Shown here one piece after another: positions 6,901-61,751 of a stretch of DNA of 64,000 nucleotides. Both the position numbers and the translations under genes were made by a program. This stretch comes from a virus (lineage: Duplodnaviria > Caudoviricetes). Under the pieces are notes generated by a model, which searched no databases, had not been told where the DNA came from, and worked only from the letters and a program-made list of their open reading frames with translations. The stretch's first letter is position 1. The number at the start of each line of letters is the position of its first letter. Location: IMG/VR virus record IMGVR_UViG_3300037400_002947, positions 32,001 through 96,000 of that record; one strand, written 5' to 3'.

Positions 6901-9900
6901 ATGTCGCGCCTTCGTAAGCTGTCTTAAGGTAGTCGAGTTCAGAAAGCTGTTTGCGTATATCATCAATTTGACCCTGGGCTTTGCTTCGTGCGGATTCATT
7001 CTGAGCGGTCGCAAGTTGCTTATTCGCTTCCGTAAGTTTCTTTGTCAAATCTTGTTGCTGTTTTAAGAATTTGCTGCGCGTAATTTTATCCTGCTGAGAC
7101 TTGAGTTTGCGGAGCTGCTTCTCATTAAGCTTTACGCCGTTCGCCGTCTTGCGGAAGAGGTCTGCGGGGTTAAATCCTTCGAGGTCTGCGAATGCATTCT
7201 TGATTGTAATGAGGTCGCCTTCGAGCGCTCCGGTTTCCTCGTTGACCGAAAGGCTGAGACCCTTGCCACCTGCTGCCGACGCGAGCGCGGCGTTAACGGA
7301 ATCGAGGGTTGTGAGAGTAGAGCCGATAGATTTCTTAAAATTATTGAATTCGGTGGAGATTGAGTCTCCTACGTCAGCAGCAACAGTTTTAATAGCTCCT
7401 AAATCTTGCGCTATTTTGATAAGTTCTTCATCGGAAAGACCAAGAGCATTTTGCATGTAAAGCAGCTCTCCGGACATTTTTCGTAAATTACCATCAAACG
7501 CCGTAGGATTGTTTATTAGGTTGAGCAAATCAATATCGTCAAAATCGTAATCTTTTAATTCGTCAAACGATTTTTTAAGTATAGTTACTTCGTCAATATA
7601 TGGATTCGTATTTGATGGGTTTTCTGATAATGCGTTTTTGACGTTAAAAATCTTCTCCTCAACTTCATCAACTTGTGAACCTACCTCGGCCAAGCCTATT
7701 TTAATTCCATTGTTATTGGCGAAAGTGTTCAAATCGTTGATGGCACCTTGCATGGTGGCACGCAACGAATCTATCTCTTCTGATTTGCCAGATGTTAACG
7801 CTTCATTGTACTTGTCAACGGCATCGCTAGCAGCATCAAGGACTCCTCTGCCTCCTTTGGAAAGAATCTGCATCTCAACATAGTGATTATACGTGTCGGC
7901 GAGATCTTTATACGAATCAGATATTTTTCCCGTTTGCGCTGACACTTCATTGATAACACTCTCGACGTAAGATGCTTTAGCGACATCTCCGATTTCTTCA
8001 TAGCCAGCCTTAATCTCATATAGCTTTTTTGTAAGAATGTCTGCATTCTCGGCTAGCTTTGAGATGTCTCCACCTTCAACAACGATATTAGACCCAGTGT
8101 CAATATCGCGATAAAAATCCTTGACTATTCCAGTTTCGCGCATTGCTCTTTCCATCTCTTCGGCAAATTCGCGCGTACCATCGTCAGTTATCTGTGGTGC
8201 AATTTGCAATTTGATGTCGTCGTAATTCTTCTCAAAACGCTTTGCAACTTCTTTGTATTCTTTCTTATTTTCTCTTAAATTTGTCCGTGCTTCCTTCTCT
8301 GAAATTTGATCAAGAATCTGAAGCTGTTTATTCAAATCTCCATTTATTAAATCTACGCCTCTGGCTTGAGATCCATATTCATCGGTTATTTTTTGTTGTA
8401 TTGAATATATTTCCTGTTTTATCTGATATCTTTCCGACTCAGAAAGATTTTCAGAATCTAATTGTGCACGTAAATCCGTTAACTGATCGCCATAATCTTT
8501 AAGTGAAATACTTGCAGAATTCCAATCTTCCGCACTAGCCTTAGCGCCTTTGATTAAATCCTCCTTGTAATTCTTGTAAGCGGCATATATCGCACCTCCT
8601 ATAAGAAGAGCAATAGCGCCGCCAGCGAGGACTGGCCCCAAGCCGGACAATATGCCAGAGCCAAGAATACCGCCTACTTTTGGCGCGGCTGAACCAACAG
8701 CAACTGCCGCTCCATTTGCTACCGCCTCTCCGGCCTCTTTACCAATCGCAACGGCAGTACTTTTGTTTATACGTAACAGATTGCCTAATATACTATCTGC
8801 CGTACCTCCTGTTTTATAATCAGTTATTCCTTTTATAAGATTAGCAATAAGACCTTGATTTCCAAGAAACCCCTTCGCAGCATCAATGCCAAGAAACGCA
8901 GTAACGATTGATGTGCCACTCCCAAGCGTTTCTACGATTTTATCTACAATTTGTAAAAACGTATTTGCTGTCTCTATAAGTCCTTTAAGAAGTTCAGAGC
9001 TTAAAAAGTCATTCGCTAATTCTTCAAGACTTGCCCTCGCTCTATCTATGGAATACTGTACTGATTGTGCATAGTTCTCCTGTTCACGAGCGGCCGATCC
9101 GGCAGCGCCCTGTGCAGATTTGTACGCTTTTTCAAGTTGCTGTGTATTGTTTAATACAGCAAAGAGGGCATTGGCCCCACGTTTTCCTGCAAGACTTTCC
9201 GCCAAACTTGCTTGTTCTATATCTGTGAGAGTTTTCCACTCCTTACCTATACCGAGCAGGATTTCATAAATATCCTTGTAAGTATTCTCATCTTCCATAA
9301 TATCAAAGCCAGTGAGCTGTTTTATTAAATCTCTAAGCTTTGATGTAGTCTGTGTAAACTCATCCTCTTCTTCGCCAAGGTCTGCTAACTCTGTCTTAGC
9401 ACCGCGAATTCTAGCGGACATCGTTTTGAATATTGTACCGACAGATTCCGGATTTTGAAGAACTGCATTTGCCGTCGTTACAAGAGCAATCGATTTATTC
9501 AAATCTGTGCCGGAAGCGTTGAATGCTGCGGCAGAACGTTGAAGAGCCTCACCAATTCCTGCCGTATCAATTGCAAAATTATTTGCGACCTCGTTAACCG
9601 AATCAACAACGCGCTCTGCCTGAGAAGCATCAATCTGAAATCCTTGTAACATACTGACTAGAGACTGACTAGCGGTCTCCTGTGTCATATTGTCGCCAAC
9701 GGTTTGATAGAGTTGTGTGACTCTTGCAAGATCCTCGGCCTGATCGATTGAATAGCCAAGTCTAGCCCAATCTGCCGTTGAATTAATAACGTCAGTAATG
9801 GTTGAACCGAGTTCTTGTGCTGTCTCAGATGAGCGTGAAAAACTTTGCTGTATTCGTGTATTCGATGCATCTGAAACTTTCTTTAATTCTGTAAGCGCCG

Positions 9901-56845: not shown

Positions 56846-57544
56846 ATGAAAGTATTAGTAGCATGCGAAGAATCACAACGTGTGGCAAAAGCATTTAGAG
56901 AACTTGGTCAAGAGGCGTACAGTTGCGATATTCAAGAGCCGTCTGGAGAAATGCCGGAGATACACATCATGCATGATGTACTTCCTTATATCAACGGAAA
57001 CTGTGTTTTTAAGACCATGGATGGAGTTGAACATCGCATTGATAAAAAATGGGATTTAATTGTTGCGCATCCTAGCTGTCAATACCTCACGTCGTCGGGA
57101 AATCGTTGGTTCAACGTTGAGCGGTACGGAGACAAGGCAAGGGAAAGGATGAAGAGACGCGACGAAGCCGCCGAATTCTTTATGAAGATTGCCAACGCAG
57201 ATTGCGACCATATTGCAATCGAGAATCCGTCCGGATTCATGTCGAGCATCTGGCGCAAACCGGATCAGACGATTCAGCCGTGGATGTTCGGCGACCCGTT
57301 CGAGAAGCGAACCTGCCTGTGGCTGAAAAATCTGCCGCAGCTTGTTCCGACCGACATTGTTGAACCGCCGCCAAGACAGGTTCTGTCGTCGGGGAAAACG
57401 ATGCCGCGATGGTATTCAAACTGTGGCGGTGACCGTCCGAAGGCAAGGAGCAAAACCTTCCCTGGAATTGCGAAGGCAATCGCAACACAGTGGACGAATT
57501 TTTTATTAACAAAGGATGCAAATATAACAGAGGAGTATAAATAA
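56846..57544 (+). CDS. Short phage C5 DNA methyltransferase-like protein
   Basis: MKVLVACEES, WDLIVAHPSC, IENP, QPWMFG, K.TCLWL, RSKTFPGIA.A.A.QW. Confidence 0.75.
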   Translation: MKVLVACEESQRVAKAFRELGQEAYSCDIQEPSGEMPEIHIMHDVLPYINGNCVFKTMDGVEHRIDKKWDLIVAHPSCQYLTSSGNRWFNVERYGDKARERMKRRDEAAEFFMKIANADCDHIAIENPSGFMSSIWRKPDQTIQPWMFGDPFEKRTCLWLKNLPQLVPTDIVEPPPRQVLSSGKTMPRWYSNCGGDRPKARSKTFPGIAKAIATQWTNFLLTKDANITEEYK

Positions 57545-58014
57545 TGCCGAGAAGATCAAGTATTGTAATTGGGGATGTATATGGAAGCCTGACGGTAGAA
57601 AAAGACCTTGGTCTTAGAAGAGGGAAGAACGGGAGAAACGCCCGTTACTTCCTCTGCCGATGCAAGTGCGGAAACTCAACGGAAGTTAGGGGAGAAAATC
57701 TGAAGAGTGGAAACACGAAGTCATGCGGATGCAGTTACAAAGAAGACAAAATCTATGACTGCATTGCCGGAATCGACGACGCATACGACAGACTGCGGTA
57801 TGCGATTGTGATTGACGCAATCGAAACGGCGAAATCTGCAACGAAAAAACTTGACGACATCAAATCGGGAAAGCGAAAGCTGAAGTACAAGGATCAGGCC
57901 GTTGAAGAATGTAAGGAAAGCATCGACGAAGCAATACGCTTTATCAAGAGCGACTGGTTCGCCGAGCTTTGCGATATAGATGCAGACACAATCATTAGAA
58001 GAATAGGAGCGTGA
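57544..58014 (+). CDS. Chimeric protein with a homing-endonuclease-type Cys-rich N-terminal module
   Basis: G.LTV..C.C.CGN..L.SGNTKSCGC followed by a helical domain; no nuclease motif. Confidence 0.6.
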   Translation: MPRRSSIVIGDVYGSLTVEKDLGLRRGKNGRNARYFLCRCKCGNSTEVRGENLKSGNTKSCGCSYKEDKIYDCIAGIDDAYDRLRYAIVIDAIETAKSATKKLDDIKSGKRKLKYKDQAVEECKESIDEAIRFIKSDWFAELCDIDADTIIRRIGA

Positions 58015-58889
58015 TAAGAATGAAGGGAACTGAATTCAAGTTCAAAGGTATGACATTCATCACCGGGATCAGCGTGAAATTCGACAGAGATCTTAAAAGG
58101 GTTGTTGAACTTCTTTCAAACGGCGAGCCGAATGCAAAAGAAAGATTGGAACTTCTTTCAATCTACCATGTCGCGTTTCACGACGACGGAAAGATCGAAG
58201 GGATTTCATCCTGCGATTCTTCCTGCACGAACTGCGAATTCTGCCAGAGCATGCTGAAGGCAGCCGAGGGTGATATGTCTATCATCTGTGCGCTCTGCTA
58301 CGACAAGGCGCAGGAAGCGTACAAGATCCACGGGCGTAATCGGCACAGCCTTGACATGCTGATTATGTCTTCGGTCGAGTTTACGGAAAGCGAACTCGCC
58401 CGAATTCCTCTTACGGGAATCACTCGAATTAATTCATCGGGTGACACGCCGAATCTTACATACGCAAGAAACATGATTAAGCTTGCCAAGGTAAACGGCT
58501 GGGTTCATGTAGGCTACTGGGCTAAGAACACCGGCCCTGTCGTCAGAGCTTGCGACGAACTTGGCAAGCCGTCAAACCTCGTGTTGATTCAGTCGAGCGT
58601 TCACATCGGCAAGCCTGCAAAGCTGTGCAAATACTTCGATTACACATTCACGGTGTATCCGGATGACGAGACGACGGAAGCGGCGATTCGTTCAGGCTCG
58701 GCAGAGTGTAACGGAAAGAAGTGTAGAGAGTGCGGCTTCAAGTGCTACTACGGAACGCATCTGTCGACGGACATCGCAGAGGTACTGCGCGGAGTCAACA
58801 AGACAAAACGTAAAGCCATAATTGAAGCATGCAAATATAACAGAAAGGAGAACGCATGCAGAGATTTACATCAGCAAATACCAGCGTGA
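58011..58889 (+). CDS. GP88-like Cys-rich protein
   Basis: GK, C..C..C, ICALCY, RINSSGD, YWAK, PSNL....S, C..C..CY. Confidence 0.6.
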   Translation: MIRMKGTEFKFKGMTFITGISVKFDRDLKRVVELLSNGEPNAKERLELLSIYHVAFHDDGKIEGISSCDSSCTNCEFCQSMLKAAEGDMSIICALCYDKAQEAYKIHGRNRHSLDMLIMSSVEFTESELARIPLTGITRINSSGDTPNLTYARNMIKLAKVNGWVHVGYWAKNTGPVVRACDELGKPSNLVLIQSSVHIGKPAKLCKYFDYTFTVYPDDETTEAAIRSGSAECNGKKCRECGFKCYYGTHLSTDIAEVLRGVNKTKRKAIIEACKYNRKENACRDLHQQIPA

Positions 58890-59332
58890 ACAGCGGCAGG
58901 ATGCCGAAGATTTATTCTCTGGCGTCCGACCTTATCAAAGGCAAATCAGTGATCGACTACGGTTGCGGAAAGTACTTTGACAACTACGTCGGAAATGTCG
59001 ACTGCGACCTGCACGGATACGACAAGTACAACCGACCGGATGAGAACGAAATCGAGGGCGAGTACGACATCGCTCTTTGCTCGAATGTGCTGAATGTAAT
59101 CGCCGAAAGAGACGAACGCATCAAGGTTTTAAGGGAACTCAAGCGGCTTGCACCGAAGGTGTTGATAACCGTCTACGAGGGTGACCGGAGCGGAAACGGA
59201 AGAGAAACAAAGGCAGATTGCTACCAGCTTAACCGAAACGCAAGCGAATACAATCCTGAGATTTCTCAGGTGTTCGAAAAGGTCACATGGTCGCGCAAAA
59301 GATTTTGGATTTGTGAGAGGAGAACTGCTTAA
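58856..59332 (+). CDS. Class I SAM-dependent methyltransferase
   Basis: VIDYGCGK, YD.Y, YD.ALCSNVLNVI. Confidence 0.78.
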   Translation: MQRFTSANTSVNSGRMPKIYSLASDLIKGKSVIDYGCGKYFDNYVGNVDCDLHGYDKYNRPDENEIEGEYDIALCSNVLNVIAERDERIKVLRELKRLAPKVLITVYEGDRSGNGRETKADCYQLNRNASEYNPEISQVFEKVTWSRKRFWICERRTA

Positions 59333-60600
59333 TGAAAGTACTTGAGTTATTCGCCGGAACAAGATCGATAGGGAAAGCGTTTGAGGCGAGAGGGCACGAA
59401 GTCTTCTCGGTCGAATGGAACAAAGACTTCGAAAACATCGACCTGTATGCAGATATTGGTCAGCTTCCAGCAAGCGAAATCATCGAGAAGTTCGGACATC
59501 CGGACGTTATCTGGGCATCACCAGACTGCACGTCTTATTCGGTTGCGGCAATCAGTAAGCACCGCAGAAAGAATCCTGTTACCGGATCTCTCGACCCGAT
59601 CAGTGATTACGCAAAGTTCTGCGACAAGGTAAATCAGCATGTGCTCGAACTGATTCGAGAATTGAAGCCGACCTACTGGTTCATCGAGAATCCTCGTGGC
59701 GGTATGCGGAAAATGGAGTGGATGCAAGGGTTGCCGAGATATACGGTTACTTACAACAATTATGACAAACTATACGAAAGAGAGATACTAAATAATATGC
59801 AAGAGAAGAAATGTCCACAATGTGGACTTATTAAACCGCTTGATCAGTTTTATAAGAACTCGCATAGGAAGGACGGCCTTACGACATATTGTAAAGAGTG
59901 TATAGCACACAACAGTCACGATTATTATGTCAGAAACAAAGAGGAGTGCAGAGATAGACTTAACAAATGGAGAGCGGAAAATAGAGAGCGTGTTAGAGAG
60001 CGAGATAAGAAATATAGGGAGGAAAACCCTGAAGTAGAGTTTAAGAAACAGCAAAGATACAGGGAGACCCATAAAGAACAACTGTATTTAAAAGGAAAAA
60101 GGTATCGCGAAGAAAACAAAGAATATTTTTATGACAAGATGAAAGAAAGAAAGGAACAGATAGCGAAGGTTGACGATGGCACCGTAACGAAAGAGTTTAA
60201 ACAGTATCTTTTCGATGAACAGGATGGCAAGTGTGCATATTGTGGCTGTGATTTAAACGAAAGCGGAAAACACATCGACCACATCATCCCTATTTCTCGT
60301 GGAGGAAAACATACAGCAAATAATGTTCAGTGGACATGCCCTACGTGTAATCTTTCGAAAGGAGACAAGTTGGAAGAAGAGTGGCTTGTAATGGGACGTC
60401 TTAAACCTACCGACCTGTGGACCAATCATCCTGACCCGAAGTTCTTGCCGCCGAGCAAGAACGGAGATCCTGACCACGTTGCTGCGCCAAGAGGTGCGAG
60501 AACAGGAACCCAGGGGTTAAAGGGAAGTGTCGAGCGGTCGAAGATTCCGGTGCTTCTGTGTGAACACATTGTAGATATATGCGAGGAGGGATGCAAATGA
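59332..60600 (+). CDS. C5 DNA methyltransferase-like protein with an in-frame HNH endonuclease insertion
   Basis: LELFAG, IWASPDC and FIENP motifs; insert with CPQC..CKEC and CAYC..HIDHIIP..GG.H...N....C..CN..K; resumes at KPTDLWTN. Confidence 0.85.
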   Translation: MKVLELFAGTRSIGKAFEARGHEVFSVEWNKDFENIDLYADIGQLPASEIIEKFGHPDVIWASPDCTSYSVAAISKHRRKNPVTGSLDPISDYAKFCDKVNQHVLELIRELKPTYWFIENPRGGMRKMEWMQGLPRYTVTYNNYDKLYEREILNNMQEKKCPQCGLIKPLDQFYKNSHRKDGLTTYCKECIAHNSHDYYVRNKEECRDRLNKWRAENRERVRERDKKYREENPEVEFKKQQRYRETHKEQLYLKGKRYREENKEYFYDKMKERKEQIAKVDDGTVTKEFKQYLFDEQDGKCAYCGCDLNESGKHIDHIIPISRGGKHTANNVQWTCPTCNLSKGDKLEEEWLVMGRLKPTDLWTNHPDPKFLPPSKNGDPDHVAAPRGARTGTQGLKGSVERSKIPVLLCEHIVDICEEGCK

Positions 60601-61751
60601 AGAACTACGTAGTAAAAGTTGTCCGTAACACAGTTGATGTAGGGTACATCACCATCAAGGCAGATAGCGCCGCAGAAGCTGTGCGGAAATATTATTATCC
60701 AATCGCCGGAGTTGAAGACATTGTCTTTGACGATGAGATTGATTGGGAAGAAACGGAAATGGAATATACGGCAACAGCTGAGGAGGATTGATCATGGAAA
60801 ACAGAATCGAGTTTATCAAGGAAATGGAAACATTCTGCCGTAAGTGTCGCGCACTCGAAGACCTTGTCATTGAGCGTGGTTATGTAGCGTATCACTTCGA
60901 CCGCCCCGAGTGGGAACAGAAAGAGTTCGTTAAGACAAACGGAGAGATTCCGGTCGGAAATGACGAGTGCATCTGCATCAGATGGAAGGATCAGTCGCCG
61001 AAGTTCGGAATCATTCAGCCGATTAACGGAGACAGCTGCTACGGAATTCTGATTGATGCGATGAAACATATCACTAGGATTGGCTGATTGCCAAGAAAGG
61101 GGACAATGTTATGAAGAATTATTTGTTAGATGCGGTAAAGGAGTTCGCGGAGTACAACTTTAATCTTCCGGACGAAGAACAGGTGACGGTAGAAACAGAA
61201 TTTGTCAACCTGTCAAATCCGTGGATGGATCAGTCGGGGCGCTTCGAACTGACCGACTACGAAGCAGTGAAGGAATGGGGATTACCTGCCGTTGTTGCTT
61301 TCTACGAGAAAGCGATGTCGTTAAGGCAAATGGTGAAGTGGATTGCGGAAAGGATGGAAATGAATGGCTAATTACAGAACTGTTCGTGAACTGAAACCGT
61401 ATAAAGGAGCCGAGATTACTCGGCTTCACAAGGATGGAATCTTTAGTTACTTCGCATTCATGGGTGACGGAACGACTCTTCGGGCGAGGACATTAAAAGA
61501 ACTGAAGGGAAAGGTAAGAGAGTATGACAAAGCGGAGCTGTGCTAACTGTGAACATCGTGCGTGGAGCAGTTGGAGTGGCATCGATTACTGTATGTGGTA
61601 CGAGATGGTGACGACAGATGAGGAGTACGAAAAAGAAGCGGCGGTTTGCCAGAAGTATGAAGAAGGAACACCATACTGCTTAACGGAAGAGGCGCTGCAT
61701 GAGAATGACCGTGACGAGTGGGATTACTACTGGTCGACACGGGGTGTCTAA
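60597..61751 (+). CDS. Run of five small hypothetical ORFs (60597-60791, 60788-61087, 61111-61371, 61364-61546, 61524-61751)
   Basis: Overlapping start/stop coupling and RBSs. Confidence 0.55.

Follow-up and report, generated by a model that had tools for sequence, protein, structure and literature searches.

An HNH endonuclease nested in frame in a phage C5 DNA methyltransferase: a candidate homing element lodged in its own target site

The nested gene and its insertion site

The window, i.e. the whole stretch of DNA analysed here (64,000 nucleotides), corresponds to positions 32001-96000 of a single 118,998-bp viral contig (IMG/VR record IMGVR_UViG_3300037400_002947; Caudoviricetes) with a guanine-cytosine (GC) content of 0.44, which appears to be a large phage genome. 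At 59332-60600 on the plus strand it carries an open reading frame (ORF) that encodes a C5 DNA methyltransferase (MTase) with an HNH endonuclease module inserted in frame. The observation that one ORF holds both methylase and HNH, with neither an intron nor an intein recognised, was made in the initial annotation from the sequence alone and is confirmed by the ORF list, the phrog_757 match and scans against Pfam and Rfam. The frame encodes 422 residues and is open throughout without an internal stop. The whole protein matches phrog_757, annotated as 'DNA methyltransferase' (E 4.7e-35), as well as phrog_1035 (E 5e-41), the latter being reached at 1e-41 by the middle part alone, and phrog_757 is matched by each MTase half on its own, i.e. 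by residues 1-145 (E 1.4e-26) and residues 356-422 (E 6.2e-07). Moreover, the GC content falls from about 0.50 outside the insert to 0.35-0.40 across it. The MTase flanks share 70-71% identity with uninterrupted methylases of 210-224 residues from Bacillus phage Deep Blue and from a human-faecal phage contig, which read TVTYCQYG-xx-R(M/Q)KPTD at the place where the window protein has about 210 extra residues.

The boundaries of the insert were set by aligning both junctions between an empty allele (locus L175), the nearest filled allele (locus L085, which carries P0001, 82% identical to the window protein) and the window. An insert of about 212 codons had been placed at 59755-60390 in the initial annotation; its existence stands, while its limits move to 59767-60396, corresponding to 210 codons that replace two of the empty allele. 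The insertion site lies between TVTY-C(Q/K)YG and R-M-KPTD. The empty site of L175 reads TAC TGC AAA TAC GGC / GAG GAA / CGC ATG AAG CCA, where the middle GAG GAA constitutes the two replaced codons, and NNYD (59755-59766), which corresponds in diverged form to C(Q/K)YG, belongs outside the insert. At the DNA level, the insert-free L175 and the filled L085 are 90.5% identical across 1318 nt up to the junction, and 81.6% identical over the 190 nt 3' of the insert, a drop which suggests a recombination boundary at or near the insert. The downstream genes of the two loci differ. Neither a target-site duplication nor terminal repeats were found at the insert flanks, where only short chance repeats occur.

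The features of the nested gene are given below; pLDDT denotes the predicted local distance difference test score of a structural model and dN/dS the ratio of non-synonymous (dN) to synonymous (dS) divergence.

59332-60600, plus strand: nested gene, a C5 MTase with in-frame HNH insert, 422 codons plus stop (ORF list; phrog_757 and phrog_1035 on one protein)
59332-59766, plus strand: N-terminal MTase half, residues 1-145, with FAGTRS, SPDC (Cys66), ENP (119-121), RYTVTY and NNYD (alignments; pLDDT above 90; dN/dS 0.089 against L085)
59755-59757, plus strand: N142, a Cys in nearly all homologues (TVTY-C; 115 of 121 sequences have Cys, and Asn is confined to the window and P0001)
59767-60396, plus strand: inserted element, 210 codons replacing 2 of the empty allele (empty L175 against filled L085 and the window; GC drop)
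59776-59784, plus strand: purine-rich run GAAAGAGAG resembling a Shine-Dalgarno motif, 12 nt ahead of the internal ATG (comparison of 10 fused DNAs)
59797-59799, plus strand: internal ATG (M156), putative native start of the HNH gene (kept in all aligned fused alleles; aligns with the HNH start of Bacillus phage BCP8-2)
59812-59901, plus strand: N-terminal zinc ribbon, CxxC 161/164 and CxxC 187/190 (four Cys invariant in the alignment; weak Stc1 match, 1.6e-04)
59926-60219, plus strand: charged helical linker with YR..N.E-type repeats (model helices 199-296, low to medium pLDDT)
60232-60381, plus strand: HNH catalytic core, CxxC 301/304, D316-H317, N331, CxxC 336/339 (HNH_5 on residues 301-350, E 2.6e-14; invariant columns)
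60397-60597, plus strand: C-terminal MTase half, residues 356-422, RLKPTDLWTNHP ... APRGARTGTQG ... IPVLLCEHIV (phrog_757 positions 159-219; dN/dS 0.040 against L085; model strand 359-364)
60454-60474, plus strand: S375 ... D381-H382, C ... C-H in most homologues (C..CH in 112 of 121; S..DH in the window, P0001 and the insert-free P0051 and P0063)

Nuclease module, internal start and methyltransferase halves

The nuclease character of the insert is evident from two Pfam families, HNH_5 (PF14279; 53.3 bits against a curated cut-off of 27.5, E 7.5e-15) and HNH (PF01844; 44.3 bits against a curated cut-off of 21.4, E 3.2e-12). Together with the alignment of the cysteines and the helices of the structural model, these matches agree with the N-terminal zinc ribbon, charged helix and intact HNH motif that had been noticed at the outset.

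In addition, the module has retained signals that point to a ribosome-binding site of its own. In all 10 fused DNAs examined, one of the motifs AGGAG, AAGGAG, GAAAGG, GGAG or GAGAG stands 12 nt before the internal ATG, and the free-standing HNH gene of BCP8-2 displays GAAGGA at equal spacing before its start. The residues encoded by this Shine-Dalgarno-like motif differ among the fused alleles (QE, KE, ER, ME and RE). All six alleles with Gln-Glu at this position use CAG-GAG, the background in fused genes being 32% GAG among Glu codons and 37% CAG among Gln codons, and in L169 (GC 0.26) the CAG at this position is the sole CAG of the gene. Since the encoded residues vary and the codon choice is uniform, constraint seems to act at the nucleotide level, as would be the case for a retained ribosome-binding site. 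Judging from these comparisons, the nuclease is probably also made from the internal start, as an HNH protein with a 67-residue MTase tail. Met codons had initially been remarked at both module boundaries, namely 59797 (M156) and 60391 (M354). Both exist, and conservation is confined to the first of them: other alleles read K/T-K-E/A at the second, which led to the rejection of a conserved second start at 60391 and leaves a separate C-terminal start without support.

With respect to the MTase, PF00145 did not fall below E 0.01 on the window protein and was reached on close homologues. Nevertheless, FAGTRS (AdoMet loop, motif I-like), SPDC with the nucleophile Cys66 (motif IV) and ENP (motif VI) are present and are invariant or nearly so among 24 aligned sequences, in which Cys66, ENP and the R..K-P following the insert are invariant. 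An AlphaFold2 model of the 422-residue protein, for which this 24-sequence alignment served as input, attained a mean pLDDT of 76.9 and values above 90 over the N-terminal half. Compared with M.HhaI (2i9k_A), the model gave a Z of 15.5 and a root-mean-square deviation of 2.7 A over 178 residues that span model residues 1-422, and the top Foldseek matches were M.HaeIII, DNMT3 catalytic domains and HhaI. According to the model, both halves would form one C5-MTase domain from which the insert exits between strand 136-140 (RYTVTY) and strand 359-364 (KPTDLW). A profile search against PDB sequences aligned motifs I-IV only, and the predicted placement of the insert in C5-MTase motif VIII is based on the model and general knowledge, not on sequence alignment.

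The MTase halves are under purifying selection. Between the window and L085 their dN/dS is 0.072 (dS 1.3), and the HNH part shows a dN of 0.108 at saturated dS, compared with a dN of 0.093 for the MTase. Given a ratio of about 0.07, the MTase gene is not decaying; a decaying methylase half had been raised as a possibility in the initial annotation, and what was found is a low ratio in a gene with all catalytic motifs kept. All other fused pairs are saturated at synonymous sites, which renders dN/dS unusable there and implies that both modules have been maintained over long divergence.

A further peculiarity of the window allele concerns three conserved cysteines. The alignments bear out that uninterrupted homologues read TVTYCQYG..RMKPTD and later C.NG..CH, and that the window reads N, S and D at these Cys positions. 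The explanation originally attached to this pattern, remodelling after insertion, does not hold: the first Cys is kept in 16 of 16 other aligned fused alleles and the C..G..CH pair in all but the frameshifted P0014, and P0051 and P0063, the nearest relatives of the window MTase, already read S..D.H despite being insert-free. On these grounds, a loss of the cysteines caused by the insertion was rejected. Rather, a single lineage has lost a presumptive Cys3-His metal site independently of the insertion, with dN/dS remaining low thereafter. The second phrog_757 methylase of the window (56846-57544) is devoid of all three Cys, and hence the cluster appears dispensable for the fold.

Distribution, mobility and competing explanations

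More than 1300 homologues were found, and all allele counts given here rest on the 120 best-scoring ones, of which about 25 carry an HNH. The same nested architecture at the same site occurs in these roughly 25 protein clusters (340-445 residues, 44-82% identity), which originate from independent Logan, ENA and NCBI assemblies with contigs of up to 83 kb. The gene contexts of the fused alleles are unrelated and include, for instance, a temperate-type module with resolvase and helix-turn-helix genes and a large phage with NrdD and three methylase genes. On a tree of the MTase part only (119 rows, insert columns dropped), the HNH state changes at least eight times, and three HNH alleles, P0005, P0012 and P0001, fall within strongly supported clades together with insert-free alleles. 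Moreover, an approximately unbiased (AU) test on a 44-row subset rejected the grouping of all 19 HNH alleles into one clade (p 0.013, delta lnL 101.8). Scans of IMG/VR returned insert-free or intein alleles only, with BCP8-2 as the sole close HNH relative, and a scan of species-representative genomes returned no close HNH relative.

The two modules are discordant in their identity matrices: pairwise identities of the MTase part and the HNH part correlate with an r of only 0.35. P0021, for instance, has the most divergent MTase (35-47% identity to other fused alleles) joined to an HNH that is 60-69% identical to the main group, and P0016 combines a typical MTase (about 70%) with a second HNH type, longer by 15 residues and sharing 43-50% identity with the main type. 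Signs of decay are seen in P0013, P0015, P0018 and P0022, the inserts of which are shortened by most of the helical linker, with the MTase frame open in all four; P0015 and P0022 show DY instead of the catalytic DH. In addition, the flank reads R-C-KPTD after the insert in 13 of 25 HNH alleles but in none of 92 insert-free and none of four intein alleles, which read Met at this residue. This flank marker thus seems linked to the insert, and co-conversion of flanking sequence would produce such a pattern.

Free-standing relatives of the module are known from two loci. The window HNH is 54% identical to a free-standing HNH of Bacillus phage BCP8-2, the gene of which lies directly between two methylase genes adjoining one another in phage Deep Blue; a first tblastn reading, by which this HNH interrupted the MTase, was rejected, as the annotation shows a separate gene upstream of an intact MTase. 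The second relative, P0124, is 63% identical, and its gene overlaps with the beginning of an uninterrupted methylase sharing 71% identity with the insert-free family member P0028. This methylase just downstream of P0124 (L178:3659-4306) reads CQYG-YPY-MKPTH at the insertion site, without the otherwise invariant Arg, and may represent a target-site variant beside its own nuclease.

A different class of mobile element occupies almost the same position in other homologues. In P0029, P0039, P0068 and P0112, LAGLIDADG inteins (C...THN/C; PF14528, PF14890) interrupt the gene at TVTY^CQYG, which precedes the HNH site by four codons; L042:3001-4611 is one locus of such an intein-bearing allele. As LAGLIDADG inteins and HNH inserts lie four codons apart, this short gene stretch constitutes a hot spot for two kinds of mobile element.

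The patchy distribution, the empty/filled pair, the neighbouring inteins, the free-standing relatives, the degenerate inserts and the purifying selection all favour the explanation that the insert is a selfish HNH homing endonuclease gene which resides in its own target site, in frame, is tolerated as a loop-out domain and is never removed; a probability of roughly 0.7 is assigned to it. Hence, of the two possibilities put forward in the initial annotation, splicing-free homing is the one favoured by the comparative evidence, and a purpose-built single-chain methylase-nuclease has found little specific support. The process is envisaged to begin with an HNH gene of the free-standing type, with its target within the methylase gene, that lodged in this very target site in the methylase reading frame and lost its stop codon. 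The resulting 422-residue methylase would keep one C5-MTase domain, with the nuclease hanging from the turn between RYTVTY and KPTDLW, and because the methylase would tolerate the nuclease as a loop-out domain, no splicing would be needed. The nuclease would be produced as part of the 422-residue protein, and its own Shine-Dalgarno motif and ATG would probably give rise to a separate product as well. During mixed infection it would cut insert-free alleles at or near TVTY-C(Q/K)YG / R-M-KPTD, and recombinational repair from the filled allele would copy the insert along with adjacent markers. After fixation the nuclease would be free to decay, with selection keeping the methylase frame open.

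Several points weigh against this explanation. Cleavage specificity, homing, the activity of the interrupted methylase and the use of the internal start are inferred only. The pLDDT of the model is limited to 45-80 over the insert and to 51-71 near residues 370-400. The AU test used rows picked with the first tree already in view, and the homologue set consists of the 120 best matches to one query rather than a random sample. The spacing of 12 nt is long for a Shine-Dalgarno motif, and the window's own motif, GAGAG, is weak. Since the three lost cysteines may bind zinc, the window methylase could be impaired despite its low dN/dS. Furthermore, an HNH adjoining an MTase, as in BCP8-2 and L178, also resembles a restriction-modification pair, and the comparable conservation of HNH and MTase in the comparison of the window with L085 is likewise compatible with a nuclease that is useful and domesticated.

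A rival notion is that of a domesticated bifunctional enzyme, in which the nested HNH is kept because it is useful, be it in the manner of restriction-modification or as a weapon against competing phages or host DNA; in variants thereof, the methylase would shield phage DNA from the phage's nuclease, or DNA binding would be what the HNH module contributes. It accords with the intact HNH core and zinc ribbon and the similar dN of both parts, with the persistence of the nested form across pairs of saturated synonymous divergence, and with the repeated occurrence of close HNH relatives beside the same MTase family. It is nonetheless judged unlikely, given that the HNH is present in only about 25 of the 120 best-scoring homologues, that its state is scattered on the MTase tree and that decayed HNH cores survive beside an intact MTase frame. 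Functional fusions usually occur at a protein terminus, whereas this insert interrupts a conserved core motif at a distance of four codons from the intein sites and retains its own Shine-Dalgarno motif and ATG; PADLOC returned generic HNH and MTase_II matches only. The most far-reaching form of this notion envisages two products, a functional single-chain methylase-nuclease of full length and, from the internal start, another nuclease that is methylase-free, the two together acting as a self/non-self weapon: the phage's own DNA would be methylated and the DNA of co-infecting phages or of the host cut. The series from free-standing HNH via the in-frame nested to the decayed form would then document how a selfish nuclease turns into a permanent internal domain of another enzyme, as happened with the HNH of Cas9 and IscB. 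This proposal is regarded as distinctly unlikely.

Plain disruption, by which insertion and the loss of three cysteines would have inactivated the methylase and left the open frame as a remnant, could draw on N142, S375 and D381 standing in for Cys residues conserved in more than 90% of homologues and on the frameshifted C-terminal part of the fused allele P0014. Yet the MTase dN/dS of 0.07 has accrued since the split of the window and L085, both of which were already without these Cys, all catalytic motifs are kept, and about 25 alleles maintain an open frame across both junctions at saturated dS. The absence of two of the Cys from the insert-free P0051 and P0063, and of all three from the second phrog_757 MTase of the window, likewise argues against disruption, which is therefore held to be highly improbable.

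An insert that is excised by some novel form of RNA or protein splicing is conceivable insofar as Rfam and Pfam hold described families only, and the authors who described the ShiLan domain, a comparable insertion, likewise could not fully exclude splicing (PMC11855218). Against this stands a consistent set of observations in line with the initial annotation, which had found no stops, intein termini or group I/II elements. A scan of 58500-61500 with Rfam in E-value mode up to E 1 yielded no intron family and only two chance-level matches, to a small nucleolar RNA family and a long non-coding RNA family; together with a frame open through both junctions in about 25 alleles, this led to the rejection of a group I or group II intron. 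The HNH ORF counted from its own ATG accounts for 594 of the 630 inserted bases and leaves only 36 nt outside, 30 before and 6 after. Pfam returned no intein or Hint family on the window protein, and the insert runs from K146 to G355, followed by R356, without an N-terminal nucleophile or an HN-C/S/T end. An intein was rejected because of the missing Hint match and the wrong junction residues, and because the true inteins of the same family are obvious and completely different. Moreover, the junction residues vary among alleles. An unrecognised splicing element is accordingly given very little credence. Lastly, an assembly chimera or sequencing artefact, which the initial annotation had entertained, was rejected and is practically negligible, as the same architecture with both junctions in frame recurs in about 25 clusters from independent samples and assemblers, on contigs of up to 83 kb.

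Related systems and genomic surroundings

By the usual view, homing endonucleases either lie between genes or, within essential coding sequence, depend on an intron or intein. If the homing explanation is correct, the window locus and its approximately 25 relatives would illustrate a third way, in which the nuclease resides in frame in a surface turn of the host enzyme with the host gene under selection. As the nuclease is part of the host polypeptide and seems to have kept its own ribosome-binding site, clear predictions follow: two protein products, cleavage of a defined empty site of 20-40 bp, and transfer of the insert in crosses. Because free-standing, nested, decayed and intein-bearing states surround one site in the same gene family, this family offers a good system for studying the entry of nucleases into coding sequence and the origin of nested domains.

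Free-standing phage HNH homing endonucleases split or adjoin their target genes, for example T4 mobE or the nrdA of Aeh1, which is split by mobE. They resemble the present family in having their own start signals and a conserved target gene and in spreading without an intron, but they lie between genes or split the host gene, whereas here one open frame runs through the nuclease. Inteins with a homing endonuclease are alike in their in-frame insertion at conserved sites and in their homing-type distribution; in contrast to them, the window insert is devoid of a Hint domain, an N-terminal nucleophile and an HN plus C/S/T end, and stays in the protein. An HNH is likewise nested in the catalytic fold of another enzyme in the case of the RuvC fold of Cas9 and IscB. 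This is an analogy only, with weak PADLOC matches to Cas9, since the HNH of Cas9 and IscB is fixed, functional, ancient, set in another host fold and not mobile.

The nearest published analogues are the ShiLan domain and the Pacc40 insertion, HNH-encoding insertions of about 200 codons in mycobacteriophage DNA methylases (PMC9957025, PMC11855218), which have been described computationally only. They share with the present family an HNH insertion of this length at a conserved methylase site with the methylase frame left open and without any intron or intein that could be detected, a disjunct distribution suggestive of homing, a predicted loop-out structure and an intein elsewhere in the same gene family (PMC9957025, PMC11855218). 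Free-standing HNH genes upstream of related methylases are also common to both, as exemplified by Tiff81 and Sashimi there and by BCP8-2 and L178 here (PMC9957025, PMC11855218). On the other hand, the ShiLan-type HNH is encoded in a frame other than that of the methylase, with a GTG start, a TAA within the insert and no ribosome-binding site found (PMC11855218), whereas the window HNH is in the methylase frame, without a stop, and part of the methylase polypeptide. What the present family would add to the ShiLan case (PMC11855218) is thus an in-frame HNH with its own, conserved internal Shine-Dalgarno motif and ATG. The methylase families differ at the BLAST level, no Mycobacterium phage record matching the insert-free MTase in a BLAST comparison. 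Furthermore, the present alleles stem from uncultured metagenome or virome phages rather than actinophages, and their nearest cultured MTase relatives are Bacillus phages. A lone LAGLIDADG insertion in the same actinophage methylase family is likewise an in-frame homing endonuclease domain for which neither a splicing domain nor an intron was detected (PMC9957025); it differs in being LAGLIDADG instead of HNH and is reported to be vertically inherited in one clade, not patchy (PMC9957025).

Within the window, the nested gene belongs to a cluster of tightly packed genes, the stops and starts of which overlap. The cluster comprises the second phrog_757 methylase mentioned above (56846-57544; 232 residues, 25% identical, without the three Cys), a GP88-like ORF and a small ORF resembling S-adenosylmethionine (SAM)-dependent MTases with a weak Methyltransf_23 match (58011-58889 and 58856-59332).

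Other loci of the methylase family display rearrangements and fusions of their own. In three IMG/VR contigs of 114-160 kb (L008:2615-3522, L012 and L030), the methylase gene is broken after ...NHPKPK, and the piece for its C-terminus (CKNGDPCH...) is found upstream in the opposite orientation, an arrangement resembling an inversion whose breakpoint lies some 20 codons beyond the HNH site. P0071, P0079, P0110 and P0114 (503-516 residues) carry a C-terminal DUF1351 fusion, recognised by Pfam in P0071 and by precomputed annotation in the others, while P0033 possesses an N-terminal extension of about 125 residues and P0117 a Lar_restr_allev match. In the large phage contig L167 (1853-6257), a fused allele comes after a gene for SAM synthetase and two additional methylase genes of PF00145, and the same contig harbours an HNH_3 gene (8681-9064) directly after nrdD.

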